Positions 4,314 through 7,708 are shown, counted from the first letter of the stretch. The stretch is 32,533 nucleotides of DNA from an uncultured bacterium (GCA_964349755.1 CAYGHT010000003.1:1-32533); one strand, 5' to 3'. Program-made: numbers and translations. Notes: generated by a model from the letters alone, not told the origin.

Positions 4314-5657
4314 ATGCGCACCAAGACAGAATCCATCGTCACCCAAGCGCGGAGCCTGCTTCCCGGTGGAGTGAATTCTCCAGTCCGCGCGTTCACAGGG
4401 CTTCAGCTCACGCCCATGGTCGTTGCCTCTGGCGCGGGAGATTGCATCTGGGATGTCGATGGGCGTAAATACATCGATTATTGCGGCAGTTGGGGAGCGC
4501 TCATTTTGGGTCACGCCCACCCCGACATCGTGCACGCTGCGCAAGCGCAGATCGGACAAGGCTCCACGTTTGGAATTTCAACCGCTGTTGAAGTGGAGCT
4601 CGCAGAGCGGGTGATTCGCCATCTCCCATCGCTCCAAAAAATTCGGTTCGTCTCTTCGGGGACAGAGGCAACCATGACCGCACTTCGCATTGCAAGGGCC
4701 TCGACGGGGCGTCCCAAAATCGTAAAATTCACCGGCCATTATCACGGCCACTGCGACGCCCTCCTCGTCCAAGCAGGCTCGGGCGCGTCTGCTCTACCTA
4801 AGGCCACCTCAAAGGGGATTTTGCACTCGGTCATCCTCGACACGCTTTGTCTTCCTTTCAATGACGAAGAGGCGCTCCTCACCCTGTTTAAATCTCCACA
4901 GCGTCACGAAATTGCCGCCGTCATTGTCGAGCCCATCGCCGCCAACATGGGCGTTGTGCCAGCGACCTCACGCTTTTTGCAGACACTTCGCACCCTCACA
5001 GCCCGTACAGGAGCGCTTCTGATTTTTGATGAAGTGGTGAGCGGCTTTCGAGTCGGCCTCCAAGGCGCCCAAGGACTGTACGGAATAACGCCCGATCTCA
5101 CCTGCCTTGGCAAGATCCTCGGAGGAGGCTTTCCCGCAGCCGCGCTCGGCGGCCATCAAAAGTACATGGACCTGCTTGCCCCAATCGGAGAGGTCTATCA
5201 AGCAGGCACCCTGTCCGGCAACCCCGTCGCCAGCCAAGCCGGCCTCGCAGTCTTAAAGCACTTAGAAAAAGACGGCGTCTATAAAACGCTCCAACAAAAA
5301 GCCGACCGTCTACAACACCCGATCGCAGAAACAATTCGCAAAGAGGGCATTTGCGCATGCATGCAGAGCGTAGGATCCATGATGACCCTTTTCTTCGGAG
5401 TCGAGCGCGTCGAGAAAAAAGAGGACTTAAGAGCGCTTGACAAAGAGCGCTTCGCGCATCTATTTCGAACGCTATTCGAACAGGGAATTTACCTTCCGCC
5501 TTCCGCAGAGGAGGCGTGGTTTGTCTCGCTCGCCCACACAGACGAACACCTCGACCAAACAGCGGATGCTGTTTGTCGATTCATTCGGGGGAGGAGCGGG
5601 GAGGGGGGAAAGGCTCCCCTCATGAGTATGAGGGGTGAGCTTGGATTAATCCGTTGA
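4314..5657 (+). CDS. hemL: glutamate-1-semialdehyde 2,1-aminomutase
   Basis: N-terminus SLLPGGVNSPVRAF..., then YIDYCGSWGALILGHAHP and FDEVVSGFRVG, typical of HemL/class III aminotransferases. It has a short Gly/Glu-rich C-terminal extension. It overlaps the convergent downstream gene by 12 nt. Confidence 0.93.
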   Translation: MRTKTESIVTQARSLLPGGVNSPVRAFTGLQLTPMVVASGAGDCIWDVDGRKYIDYCGSWGALILGHAHPDIVHAAQAQIGQGSTFGISTAVEVELAERVIRHLPSLQKIRFVSSGTEATMTALRIARASTGRPKIVKFTGHYHGHCDALLVQAGSGASALPKATSKGILHSVILDTLCLPFNDEEALLTLFKSPQRHEIAAVIVEPIAANMGVVPATSRFLQTLRTLTARTGALLIFDEVVSGFRVGLQGAQGLYGITPDLTCLGKILGGGFPAAALGGHQKYMDLLAPIGEVYQAGTLSGNPVASQAGLAVLKHLEKDGVYKTLQQKADRLQHPIAETIRKEGICACMQSVGSMMTLFFGVERVEKKEDLRALDKERFAHLFRTLFEQGIYLPPSAEEAWFVSLAHTDEHLDQTADAVCRFIRGRSGEGGKAPLMSMRGELGLIR

Positions 5658-6434
5658 ATTAGAGTGGTTAGGTGTTTGTGGCTGGGGTGGGAGTGAGTCG
5701 AAGCCTAGGCCTTTTCTAGGTTGTGCCGGGAGCATTTTCTGTGACACGGTGGCAGGACAATAGGCAGGGTGCATTGCTGGTGGTATTGAGACGACTTGGT
5801 TTGGCGGGTCCTTTCGGGCTCTCCCACCGACCCCTTCGTGGCTGTAGCCTACGTCATGGTCTGGGTCGTCTTCTTTTGTTGGTATTGAGCCGCTACCTGA
5901 TGTTTCTGCTTCTTGTGGAAGGGGCTCATCATGATGATCGTGGTGGCAGTGGGGTGCGTTGCCCGTGTCGGTGTTTAAGTGGTCGCGTGTTTTTGTTAGC
6001 ATTGAGCGTTTACTTAAGCCTCCTTTCCTCTGTCGTTTGCTGGAGACCTGACCCTGAGGGCTGCCTGTGTCGTCCCCGGCCAGGTCGTGGACTTGGCCTG
6101 ATGAGGCGGCTTTCGATATCCGTTTGTCGATCGCCGAGTACGCGCCACAAAGCAGGTTCAAGCCGTTGTTGGCAAAAACCCACATCATGACGTATGCGAA
6201 CGCTTTGTCGGCAATTATGGCGATGCCTTTCAGTTTAAGGGGGAGAACGTGGAAGACTGTGGATGGAAGGAAGTAAGCAGCTACGATTGTGAGAATGATC
6301 GGCAAAGCCAACTTTGCAGTGACCTTTAATGATGAGTCGTAGAAGTCATCTACGACCATATCTTCGAAGCCAAAAGGGCCGGTTAGCCACAACGAGAGGT
6401 TATGAGGAGTTGCAATTGTTTCAAGATAACCCAT
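5646..6434 (-). CDS. Inc-like membrane protein (paralog 1): two adjacent hydrophobic segments and a long disordered His/Asp/Pro-rich tail
   Basis: The N-terminal ~105 aa are paralogous to ORF 7057-7572 (shared HNLSL, LKLK and NN.LNLLCGA.SAI). Hydrophobic stretches are LALPIILTIVAAYFLPSTVF and AFAYVMMWVFANNGLNLLCGAYSAI. The tail contains HCHHDHHDE. An SD-like AGGGGG lies 7 nt upstream of the ATG. Confidence 0.6.
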   Translation of the reverse strand: MGYLETIATPHNLSLWLTGPFGFEDMVVDDFYDSSLKVTAKLALPIILTIVAAYFLPSTVFHVLPLKLKGIAIIADKAFAYVMMWVFANNGLNLLCGAYSAIDKRISKAASSGQVHDLAGDDTGSPQGQVSSKRQRKGGLSKRSMLTKTRDHLNTDTGNAPHCHHDHHDEPLPQEAETSGSGSIPTKEDDPDHDVGYSHEGVGGRARKDPPNQVVSIPPAMHPAYCPATVSQKMLPAQPRKGLGFDSLPPQPQTPNHSNSTD

Positions 6435-6571
6435 TTTGTTGCCCCCTTGCGGTTTGTTAAGTTTGTGAAGGGTGAAAAATTTGTTTTAGTTCACGCTTCA
6501 TTCGCACTCTTGAAAAAGAGAAAGCAGTAGTATGGCATTTTTCAAGACAATTCCGCAAGGCAAATAATTTT
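6435..6571 (-). promoter_or_regulatory. conserved promoter/5' leader, copy A, upstream of Inc-like paralog 1
   Basis: By hand alignment it is roughly 75-80% identical to 7573-7708. Candidate promoter on the minus strand: TTGCGG (6558-6553), 18-nt spacer, CATACT (6534-6529). Perfectly conserved blocks on the plus strand are tagtatggcatttttc, ttcacgcttcattc and gtgaaaaatttg. Confidence 0.5.
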
Positions 6572-6631
6572 TTATATAGTGTTGATCAGACGAACATCTT
6601 GGGGCCTTCCGCGACGTTGTTTGTCAATTCA

Positions 6632-6988
6632 TTAGGAGGAAAGCGAGGAGGGGGGAGAAGAAGGTGGGCTCTCTTCGGTCACCACGTGCATGCGCCGCAC
6701 CTCCAAATGAGATTCTGCGATCAGCACTTTCCGGTGTTCCACCTCGACGAGATAAAGCATCGTTTTCGGACTCAACATCTTCTTTTCCAAAACATGGATC
6801 GCAGGCTTCGAAGAAGAGCGCTGCAGCCGCCGCTGAATCAAGCGACGCAAGACGTATGCTGAGAGAACCATGAGCGCAACCAACAGAGCGAGCGCGCAAA
6901 TCATCTTGAAGAACATAAAGCCATAGCTCCCAGACGGAGCGTCGAGGGGAGGGACTTCCTCAGCAAGAGATGCAAGTGTGATGAACAT
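6632..6988 (-). CDS. FliO-like small single-pass membrane protein
   Basis: One TM segment (MICALALLVALMVLSAYVL) is followed by basic RRLIQRRLQR. Then IHVLEKKMLSPKTMLYLVEVEHRKVLIAESHLEVRRMH resembles the FliO core (E. coli LKVVASQSLGPRERVVIVEVENARLVLGVTASQINLLH, recalled from memory). The start is uncertain: the ATG at 6988 has no SD, and the internal Met25 is preceded by GGGAG. Confidence 0.5.
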   Translation of the reverse strand: MFITLASLAEEVPPLDAPSGSYGFMFFKMICALALLVALMVLSAYVLRRLIQRRLQRSSSKPAIHVLEKKMLSPKTMLYLVEVEHRKVLIAESHLEVRRMHVVTEESPPSSPPSSLSS

Positions 6989-7014
6989 AAATTAGGAGCG
7001 TAGCACAAAAAAAG

Positions 7015-7046
7015 AAAACCCGTGAGAAAAAATCTCACGGGTTTTT
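7015..7046. terminator. bidirectional intrinsic terminator hairpin
   Basis: The sequence is aaaa-cccgtgaga-aaaaa-tctcacggg-ttttt. It has a perfect 9-bp GC-containing stem extended by A/T pairs, with U-runs on both strands. It lies 11 nt after the stop of Inc-like paralog 2. Confidence 0.7.
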
Positions 7047-7056
7047 GGGATTGAGG

Positions 7057-7572
7057 TTAAACTTTGAGGGCGTCTTTTGAATCAACGGCTGATGATGCGG
7101 TTGCGGCAGCGCTTGCTGATGTGTTCGTTGGTGTTGGAGCGGCATTAACATTGCTGGTATTTGCTGGTGGTGTACCCCCCTCGCTAGTCGCTTTGTTGCT
7201 ATCGTTGCTCTGCTTGTTCTTTGAGGAAGCGGCAGGAGTCTTTGTTGCGTATGCGCGGATTGCCGAGCATGCCCCACAAAGCAGGTTCAATATGTTGTTG
7301 ACGACAGCCCAGATCGCGACGCCTGAGGTGACTTTCGCAGCAGTTGCGGCGACTGCCTTCAGTTTAAGAGCGGAGCCGATGAGTCCGGCTACTGGCGTAA
7401 AGTAAGCAATTCCGGCTGTGAGAATGATCGCTGGAGCAATCTTTGTGACCGATTCCGTGATCGTTTCAAACCAAGTGCTATACGACTTTGCTACCATGCT
7501 TTTGTAGCCAAAATATGTGGTTGGTACTAGCGAAAGATTATGTGCTGCATTAACAACGTTAGGAAGAGCCAT
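7057..7572 (-). CDS. Inc-like membrane protein (paralog 2): bilobed hydrophobic domain and a Ser/Thr/Ala/Asn-rich tail
   Basis: Hydrophobic lobes lie at about aa 45-68 (IAPAIILTAGIAYFTPVAGLIGSA) and aa 83-105 (GVAIWAVVNNILNLLCGACSAI). It is paralogous to 5646-6434. An SD-like AAGGGG lies upstream of the ATG, and a terminator follows. Confidence 0.65.
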   Translation of the reverse strand: MALPNVVNAAHNLSLVPTTYFGYKSMVAKSYSTWFETITESVTKIAPAIILTAGIAYFTPVAGLIGSALKLKAVAATAAKVTSGVAIWAVVNNILNLLCGACSAIRAYATKTPAASSKNKQSNDSNKATSEGGTPPANTSNVNAAPTPTNTSASAAATASSAVDSKDALKV

Positions 7573-7708
7573 TTTGTTACCCCTTGTGGTTTTTAAGTTC
7601 GTAAAGAGTGAAAAATTTGCTGCATTTCACGCTTCATTCACACTGTTTAAAAAGTGAAGGCATTAGTATGGCATTTTTCGGGAAAACTGTGCAAGACAAA
7701 CAAATTTT
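7573..7708 (-). promoter_or_regulatory. conserved promoter/5' leader, copy B, upstream of Inc-like paralog 2
   Basis: Paralogous to 6435-6571. Candidate promoter on the minus strand: TTGCAC (7694-7689), 18-nt spacer, CATACT (7670-7665), with the same geometry as copy A. Confidence 0.5.

Follow-up and report, generated by a model that had tools for sequence, protein, structure and literature searches.

Stem-loops in the 5′-untranslated region (5′-UTR) of an mRNA, such as those of the Escherichia coli ompA leader, can be stabilizing or translation-controlling, and mRNA-borne or 5′-proximal signals have been proposed for secretion of the Yersinia Yops (reviewed in PMC6232918). Among the Chlamydiota, Inc proteins are defined by a bilobed hydrophobic domain of 40–60 residues, with two transmembrane helices of 15–32 residues and a loop of <30, together with an N-terminal type III secretion signal, inclusion-membrane localization and restriction to this phylum (Dehoux et al. 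2011, PMC3048545). In Chlamydia pneumoniae, a promoter class with CTTG at −35, GTAT at −10 and a T-rich spacer is found at 24 genes, ten of which are pmp paralogues, and 111 of 437 mRNAs have leaders of >100 nt (Albrecht et al., PMC3333780). The locus examined here lies on a 32,533-nt stretch of DNA from an uncultured bacterium (GCA_964349755.1, CAYGHT010000003.1:1-32533), referred to as the window, which is a complete 32.5-kb contig with a G+C content of 53%. It carries two neighboring minus-strand genes, A and B, encoding candidate Inc-like membrane proteins, each preceded by a noncoding leader of about 135 nt.

A preliminary description of this DNA had proposed that the two leaders are better conserved than the coding sequences that follow them, and had taken this as a sign of selection on a shared regulatory element. 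The explanation favored here, with confidence a little better than even, is that a gene cassette was duplicated and that its promoter/5′-UTR module was kept by selection while the proteins diversified.

Leaders and coding sequences of genes A and B

Both open reading frames (ORFs) were found as previously described, gene A at 5646–6434 (minus strand, 262 aa) and gene B at 7057–7572 (minus strand, 171 aa). Alignment of the sequence upstream of gene A (leader A, 6435–6572, minus strand) with that upstream of gene B (leader B, 7573–7708, minus strand) gave 112 identical positions among 136 aligned nt (82%) with two single-base gaps, slightly above the 75–80% that had been estimated by hand. The leader pair is the top-ranked repeat family in the window, and a blastn search with leader A as query matched leader B at E = 5.7e-32; no third copy was found within the window by either blastn or block searches. 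The coding sequences share only their first 104 codons, with 42 identical residues (40%), in agreement with the earlier figure of ~105 residues at 35–40%. The motifs HNLSL and NN.LNLLCGA.SAI are present in both proteins, whose tails do not align with each other. In the codon alignment, DNA identity over the shared part is 58% at first, second and third positions alike; free alignment as DNA raises it to 64–69%. Codons 41–104 are 66% identical and codons 1–40 are 47% identical, so that identity falls from 82% to 47% exactly at the ATG.

The claim that the leader is better conserved than the coding sequence was therefore borne out, both against all coding sites (Fisher p = 5e-7) and against third codon positions (p = 7.5e-5), 41% of which differ. 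The Jukes–Cantor distance between the leaders is 0.20, as compared with 0.56–0.90 synonymous substitutions per site (dS) in the shared codons. The leader distance is thus a third of dS or less, and change in the leader has been roughly threefold slower than in the coding sequence. The corresponding nonsynonymous value (dN) is 0.57–0.70, giving a dN/dS of 0.67–1.22 depending on the method, with values of 1.0–1.2 reached under two methods. About half of the contrast between leader and coding sequence is due to this unusually fast protein evolution (dN/dS ~1). Perfect blocks of 16, 14 and 12 nt do exist between the leaders, as had been reported, but when 24 mismatches are placed randomly over 136 nt, the longest run is at least 16 nt with P = 0.69 and blocks of 16, 14 and 12 nt arise with P = 0.22. 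The blocks are the chance expectation at 82% identity, carry no information on constraint and were rejected as a signal of it.

Each leader contains an A/T tract upstream of a predicted promoter, and the identical promoter geometry noted in the preliminary description was confirmed and extended to TTGC(GG/AC), an 18-nt spacer, TG-n and CATACT. By comparison with consensus sequences, the −35 element of leader A is placed at 6553–6558 (TTGCGG), the TG at 6536–6537, one base upstream of the −10 hexamer, and the −10 element at 6529–6534 (CATACT); the equivalents in leader B are at 7689–7694 (TTGCAC), 7672–7673 and 7665–7670 (CATACT), all on the minus strand. From consensus only, transcription would start near 6522 in leader A and near 7658 in leader B. 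Shine–Dalgarno sequences are seen at 6442–6448 (AAGGGGG) and 7580–7585 (AAGGGG), respectively. In leader B, a U-rich segment follows the inferred start, and a CA-rich linker separates a predicted hairpin from the Shine–Dalgarno sequence. Consensus sequences for sigma-28 and sigma-54, compared by eye with the leaders, were not present. A conserved antisense ORF was likewise discarded as a candidate: a 72-aa plus-strand ORF runs over leader B, the equivalent stretch of leader A stops after five codons, and no antisense ORF common to both leaders was found.

Related loci in the Chlamydiota

The best matches of the window genes are in metagenome-assembled genomes of uncultured Chlamydiales/Chlamydiota. 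Using the conserved gene for a 405-aa protein that adjoins gene B as an anchor, 40 syntenic Chlamydiota loci were fetched. In many of these, a single minus-strand gene separates fliO from the gene lying next upstream, in most loci a Hydrolase_3 gene that precedes the 405-aa gene. A single gene of the gene B type, in the same position and on the same strand, was found in L001 (GCA_034680565.1, the closest relative) and in L005–L014, L017, L022–L024, L029 and L040. The 130–150 nt upstream of these genes are strongly conserved, and a leader family was defined from 17 Chlamydiota loci other than the window, 14 by profile and 3 from metagenomes. The profile, from which the window was left out, recovered a single leader at each of the 14 loci (E = 1e-14 to 1e-30). 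The core leaders (L010, L012, L013, L014, L017, L022, L023, L029, L108, L125 and L145) are 78–84% identical; in the same genomes, the 405-aa proteins are 55–69% identical where the contig has the gene, and the orthologous proteins behind the leaders are 25–50% identical to one another. Conservation of the leader beyond that of the coding sequence is thus characteristic of this fliO-adjacent membrane-protein gene family as a whole, which argues for selection on the promoter/5′-UTR module.

Members of the family share a fixed order of elements: an A/T tract, CTTG, ~19–20 nt, GTATAAG, TGCCTATC, a U-rich box of TTTTTGAAGTTTTTAT(T/G/A)AACC, a hairpin, an A-rich linker, GAGGTA and the ATG. In the family consensus the box ends in AT(T/G/A)AAC(C), and the CTTG is invariant in all 19 leaders, those of the window included. 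Leader B occupies the family position, directly upstream of the gene preceding fliO and on the same strand, and leader A is its duplicate. Both window leaders follow the family order and contain CTTG, TGCC/TGCT, CACTTTTT and ATGAAGC; they differ from the family in a −10 element of CCATACT, an altered box and a weak hairpin.

A regulon defined by a shared box was tried as a candidate and rejected: a metagenome scan for TTTTTGARNTTTTYATTAACC gave 115 loci, of which three were true leaders, all before the same type of gene. Extra matches to a covariance model of the core UTR, in L023 and L022, corresponded to coding sequence and to an ordinary ribosome-binding site. L029 has a tandem pair of its own from this gene family (2910–5007, minus strand; 597 aa and at least 221 aa), independent of that in the window, in which the full leader is found in the downstream copy alone and the upstream copy keeps a CTTG…GTATAA promoter with a short UTR.

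Repeat structure of the locus

A second repeat pair, absent from the preliminary description, lies in the same direct orientation as the leaders. Repeat J (6587–6660, minus strand) consists of the fliO 3′ end and a non-functional copy of the hemL 3′ end, and forms the right-hand end of unit 1; repeat J′ (5539–5612, minus strand) contains the functional hemL 3′ end, read on the plus strand, with a remnant of the fliO 3′ end, and forms the right-hand end of unit 2. Local alignment of J with J′ gave 58 identical positions among 71 (82%; z = 13.4 against shuffles), and the core was recovered by blastn at E = 2.6e-7. The two copies of leader and N-terminal coding sequence are spaced by 1136/1129 nt and J and J′ by 1048 nt, and leader A directly follows repeat J. 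In L001, a single gene of this type is present at the position of gene B, and the convergent hemL and fliO overlap at their 3′ ends with no intervening gene. Two collinear repeat pairs of near-equal spacing, the junction of J with leader A and the gene order of L001 together point to a tandem duplication, and the simplest reading of the sequence is that genes A and B are the remnant of one of ~1.1 kb. The J/J′ repeat marks the old fliO/hemL junction.

According to the favored explanation, an uncultured chlamydia would have undergone tandem duplication of a ~1.1-kb unit that began with the promoter and leader, continued through the membrane-protein gene, its terminator and fliO, and included the first few bases of the tail of hemL, which converges on fliO. 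Gene B would have remained at the ancestral position; in the second copy, fliO would have been lost or replaced and the membrane-protein gene would have gained a new C-terminal tail, yielding gene A. Each copy would have kept a putative sigma-66-type promoter (CTTGC at −35, 18 nt, TG-n-CATACT), followed by a predicted 5′-UTR of ~87 nt that is U-rich in its 5′ part and then has an AU-rich hairpin and, after a CA-rich linker, a strong Shine–Dalgarno sequence. This module would be under purifying selection, the proteins would change at a near-neutral or faster rate, as expected for host-facing secreted membrane proteins, and the diverging paralogues would as a consequence stay co-regulated.

The J pair also provides an estimate of the neutral distance. 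Its own distance is 0.21, and the proportion of differing sites is 0.18 in both J and the leader. This equality is what would be seen if the leader were unconstrained, the duplication fairly recent and the neutral distance ~0.2, with the coding sequences having run ahead under strong diversifying selection and dS being inflated by multiple hits or alignment error. The random distribution of leader mismatches, the dN/dS above 1 under two of the methods and the four-fold degenerate sites at conserved residues (6 of 21 different) are compatible with such an account. However, each site of J lies in functional hemL or fliO in one copy and is free in the other, so that the pair would diverge at about half the neutral rate and the neutral pairwise distance would be ~0.3–0.4 or more, in agreement with the distance of 0.36 at the four-fold sites (n = 21). 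Third codon positions moreover differ at 41% overall, remnants of fliO and of the gene B tail would be easy to see in unit 2 at a neutral identity of 82% and were not detected, and in other genomes selection on the equivalent leaders is clear. An unconstrained leader is accordingly regarded as improbable. On the J-based estimate, the leader appears to evolve at roughly one-third to one-half the neutral rate and the proteins at about the neutral rate or faster; with a slow leader and proteins at or above neutrality, it is the noncoding part that looks better preserved.

The preliminary description had asked whether the leader might simply be part of a larger duplication of uniform identity. It does lie within the ~1.1-kb duplication, but identity along the duplicated unit is not uniform. 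An alternative to selection is gene conversion, in which a short tract homogenized the leader, and possibly the coding sequence of the hydrophobic module, after an older duplication, so that the 82% would date the last conversion event. The even spread of leader mismatches, without position-specific constraint, fits this, as does the mosaic of the coding sequence (dS of 0.48 in codons 41–104 and 1.8 in codons 1–40), and copies 1.1 kb apart in direct orientation are favorable to conversion. A 17-nt perfect match within the coding sequences (6145–6161 and 7274–7290, minus strand; TTGAACCTGCTTTGTGG), which encodes LNLLCG and includes all synonymous positions, is longer than expected at 66% identity (P ~ 0.04) and may be either a small conversion tract or the result of nucleotide-level constraint. 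On the other hand, the boundaries of a conversion tract would have to coincide precisely with the start codon and the duplication junction, and with the leaders at 82% rather than near 100% any conversion must have occurred long ago. The J pair, separated from the leader within its unit, is also 82% identical, and orthologous leaders are conserved in genomes that have no paralogue to convert from. Conversion as the main cause is for these reasons given little credence.

Several observations weigh against a duplicated cassette with a selected leader. No significant similarity was seen between the tail of gene A and the gene B tail, the terminator or fliO (z −0.4 to +0.5), and a middle of unit 2 without similarity to unit 1 requires later replacement or remodelling. 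The 24 mismatches between leaders A and B are evenly spread and not enriched in family-variable columns (p = 0.28), and so give no signal of element-specific constraint within the window. When compared with the 21 four-fold sites in codons for conserved residues (71% identical), the leader is not separable (p = 0.24); the comparison with synonymous sites called for in the preliminary description thus comes out in favor of the leader for whole-gene dS and third positions and not for this subset. The resemblance of the window leaders to the wider family is also slight by statistical measures. They match 30 and 28 of the 45 conserved family columns, borderline against 23 ± 3.7 in shuffles; an nhmmer search with the window-free profile gave a weak match at 6511–6575, in the promoter half of leader A (E = 5.8), and did not find leader B; and the covariance model of the core UTR (R1) gave no match in the window at E ≤ 10, also missing L001. 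Given the weak profile match, the lack of a covariance match and the borderline columns, the window leaders are not called family members but are treated as probable diverged relatives.

The tail of gene A was also considered as an overprinted remnant of the gene B tail, terminator and duplicated fliO. Alignment scores were equal to those of shuffles, with one similar patch of 33 nt near the old stop codon, and this candidate was rejected. As a separate observation, the C-terminus of hemL (5590–5657, plus strand) is ~17–20 residues longer than in relatives (447 aa versus 427 and 430). In antisense, the added stretch crosses the hairpin 3′ of gene A and overlaps the last 12 nt of that gene; it looks like a side effect of the rearrangement.

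RNA-level features of the leaders

Fold predictions place an AU-rich hairpin at 6467–6499 in leader A and at 7603–7635 in leader B, and a small 5′ hairpin, CUCUU/AAGAG, in leader A (all minus strand). Both leaders can form the hairpin GAAG-C-GUGAA(A) … (U)UUCAC-C/U-CUU(C/U), which is weak in the window, at −5 to −8 kcal/mol. Fold energies of the window leaders do not differ from those of shuffles (z = −0.79, −0.79, +0.82 and −0.40), and RNA structure within these two leaders was rejected as a finding on that basis. The earlier proposal of selection on a shared regulatory element is thus supported in part, for a promoter/5′-UTR module, on the evidence of rates, the sharp drop at the ATG and the orthologues, but not for a structured RNA in the window, where z-scores range from −0.8 to +0.8.

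In the wider family the hairpin follows the box in all 17 non-window leaders, with a sequence that differs in nearly every genome, and its five basal pairs are 84.8% paired compared with 68.6% in shuffles, in an alignment that was itself fitted to the structure. In the same structure-fitted alignment, four of the five basal pairs show changes on both sides. The close pair L010 and L125 differ by a compensatory change, from GGC/GCC to GACC/GGUC.

These data raise the alternative that an RNA-level device in the 5′-UTR is selected rather than the promoter, acting through the hairpin with its U-rich and A-rich tracts, through pairing of 5′ pyrimidines with the Shine–Dalgarno sequence or through a short upstream ORF (uORF), and controlling translation or mRNA stability, possibly coupled to secretion. 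Such a device would account for the hairpin held in place with covariation, and different sequence, in the other 17 leaders, and for the compensatory change between L010 and L125. Both hairpin arms are kept between leaders A and B, with changes that are structure-neutral (C to U in an internal mismatch, and G-C to G-U), and the loop differs at four of its first six positions. Minimum free energy folds pair UGCUUUCUC or GCCUU with the Shine–Dalgarno region, but the putative anti-Shine–Dalgarno stretch may lie upstream of the transcription start. A uORF of 14 codons spans the hairpin at 6457–6501 and 7593–7637 (minus strand; MKRELKQIFHPSQT and MKREMQQIFHSLRT) and is identical in start, frame and stop between the leaders, yet all seven of its nucleotide differences are non-synonymous and it is not present in the other 17 leaders. 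Folding energies equal to those of shuffles speak against the device, as does the lack of an Rfam match: no family in release 15 scored above its gathering threshold, and the best matches, PyrG_leader on the opposite strand (21.9 bits, threshold 65) and a snoRNA, both had E ~ 9. Two sequences at 82% identity offer almost no power to see covariation. Selection on such a device in place of the promoter is considered unlikely.

A broader and more speculative proposal, which is doubtful although somewhat less so, is that the leader of the fliO-adjacent gene is a new cis-regulatory RNA of environmental Chlamydiota, made up of a conserved U-rich box and a hairpin that holds its position as its own sequence changes. 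Through this RNA, the translation or stability of a secreted, fast-evolving protein would be controlled, perhaps by a conserved factor, Euo or a secretion chaperone being examples, and the window would hold a diverged, duplicated version that had gained a short uORF across the hairpin. With regard to Euo, the motif from chromatin immunoprecipitation sequencing in Waddlia (TTAAAAACAAATTTT; PMC4989314), searched with up to three mismatches, has three matches in the window, two of which are in the leaders (6476–6490, minus strand, and 7694–7708, plus strand). These two are at non-equivalent positions and on different strands, and 10% of shuffles contain at least three matches; the number is not significant and the motif is a lead only.

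Features of the encoded proteins

Gene A keeps the N-terminal module of 104 residues and has an unrelated His/Asp/Pro-rich tail. Gene B has a variable N-terminus, a hydrophobic region of ~58 aa (residues 45–102) ending in NLLCGA and a Ser/Thr/Ala/Asn-rich tail. Gene B matches no Pfam or NCBIfam family. A search of 1.84 billion representative proteins turned up no further homologue of either protein. A word-indexed protein search gave B as the sole match, and three repeat-rich proteins matched besides A and B in a full HMMER search were spurious.

Kyte–Doolittle windows of at least 1.5 cover residues 34–88 in A and 45–105 in B. Of the bilobed domain proposed in the preliminary description, the overall architecture fits and the first lobe is clearly hydrophobic (residues 42–66 in A and 45–69 in B), but the second, which contains NN, is marginal, with hand-computed means of ~1.2 in A and ~1.5 in B. 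AlphaFold modelled the shared domain as two helices, at a mean predicted local distance difference test score of 44 that makes the model unusable. The N-termini, MGYLETIATP and MALPNVVNAA, are unconserved; a type III secretion signal would be compatible with this, but lack of conservation is not diagnostic of one.

The positional orthologues in other loci, which also have no Pfam family, combine an Ala/Ser/Thr-rich N-terminus, a Lys-rich KKVAKV motif, a hydrophobic stretch of ~30 residues with a central Pro and a Cys-Gly motif with low-complexity tails of 40 to >1000 residues. An hhalign comparison of A and B with 16 of them was not significant (probability 1%). Comparison with the 413-aa protein of L001 gave E = 2e-4 and a probability of 45%, which is suggestive only. 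This L001 orthologue (8578–9819, minus strand) has two tandem hydrophobic modules followed by a long Ala/Thr/Lys-rich tail.

Neighboring genes

In the window, an Omp85/TamA-like gene is followed by hemL (4314–5657, plus strand, from ORF and domain searches), gene A, which is the derived copy inserted between fliO and hemL, a fliO-like gene (6632–6988, minus strand, 118 aa), gene B and the plus-strand gene for the 405-aa protein (7817–9034). The fliO-like gene matches Pfam FliO at E = 6.8e-9 and TIGR03500 at E = 9.6e-10, the latter under the curated cut-off. It is the conserved downstream neighbor of the gene B family and sits within the first copy of the duplicated unit. A predicted intrinsic terminator with a 13-bp stem and a T run lies 3′ of gene B (7015–7045, minus strand). 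The nearest relative of the 405-aa protein among 5.8 billion proteins is 49% identical, and no closer relative was found in sequence databases. Between the 405-aa gene and a fabI-like gene, an AbiEii toxin/AbiEi antitoxin pair was observed (type IV toxin–antitoxin, abortive-infection type; 9050–10488, minus strand), which is not present in the syntenic loci L001–L004.

Discussion

A leader that changes more slowly than its coding sequence after duplication is an ordinary outcome; here it exposes a type of leader that is not yet catalogued, and the wider leader family is a more interesting by-product than the window pair itself. Inc-like proteins of uncultured chlamydiae are not recognizable by homology, genes A and B being a case in point. 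The conserved promoter and leader, with the fixed address next to fliO, provide a handle that outlasts the protein sequence, by which such genes could be found in other genomes, co-regulation inferred and candidates chosen for secretion assays. As a pair, A and B would illustrate cleanly how regulatory sequence can be conserved after a duplication while the proteins evolve near-neutrally or diversify. Rfam has no entry for the leader family, which would merit curation if its transcription were confirmed by transcript data.

In comparison with described systems, A and B are, like Inc proteins, small and Chlamydiota-specific, the best matches of their neighbors being in that phylum and the gene order being common to 40 such loci. 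They also resemble Inc proteins in having a hydrophobic region of ~55–60 residues near the N-terminus, poor conservation otherwise, low-complexity tails and adjacent paralogues. Unlike Inc proteins, they have a marginally hydrophobic second lobe and a Lys in the loop, most of their orthologues have the single ~30-residue stretch with a central Pro, and they show no sequence homology to any named Inc. The fit to the Inc description is therefore a loose one, and Inc status appears plausible from the sequence.

With the C. pneumoniae CTTG/GTAT promoter class the family shares CTTG at −35 in every leader and GTAT(AAG) at −10 in its core members, and in both cases the motif is common to members of a fast-evolving surface-protein gene family. 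The window differs from that class in having CCATACT rather than GTATAAG and spacers (AATTGTCTTGAAAAATGC and AGTTTTCCCGAAAAATGC) that are not notably T-rich, and conservation here reaches ~90 nt into the predicted transcribed leader. Given the proportion of C. pneumoniae leaders that exceed 100 nt, a leader of 87 nt is long but not unusual.

As in the ompA leader of E. coli, the long predicted 5′-UTR of the window combines stem-loops with a single-stranded U-rich segment before a strong Shine–Dalgarno sequence; it differs in that its hairpin is weak and that there is no sequence relationship. The likeness to the Yersinia Yops is that A and B are candidate type III substrates with first codons that are very poorly conserved in protein. 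In contrast to the signals proposed there, the conserved sequence at this locus lies upstream of the start codon, and because the first 40 codons are the least conserved at the DNA level as well, an mRNA signal inside the coding start is not supported.

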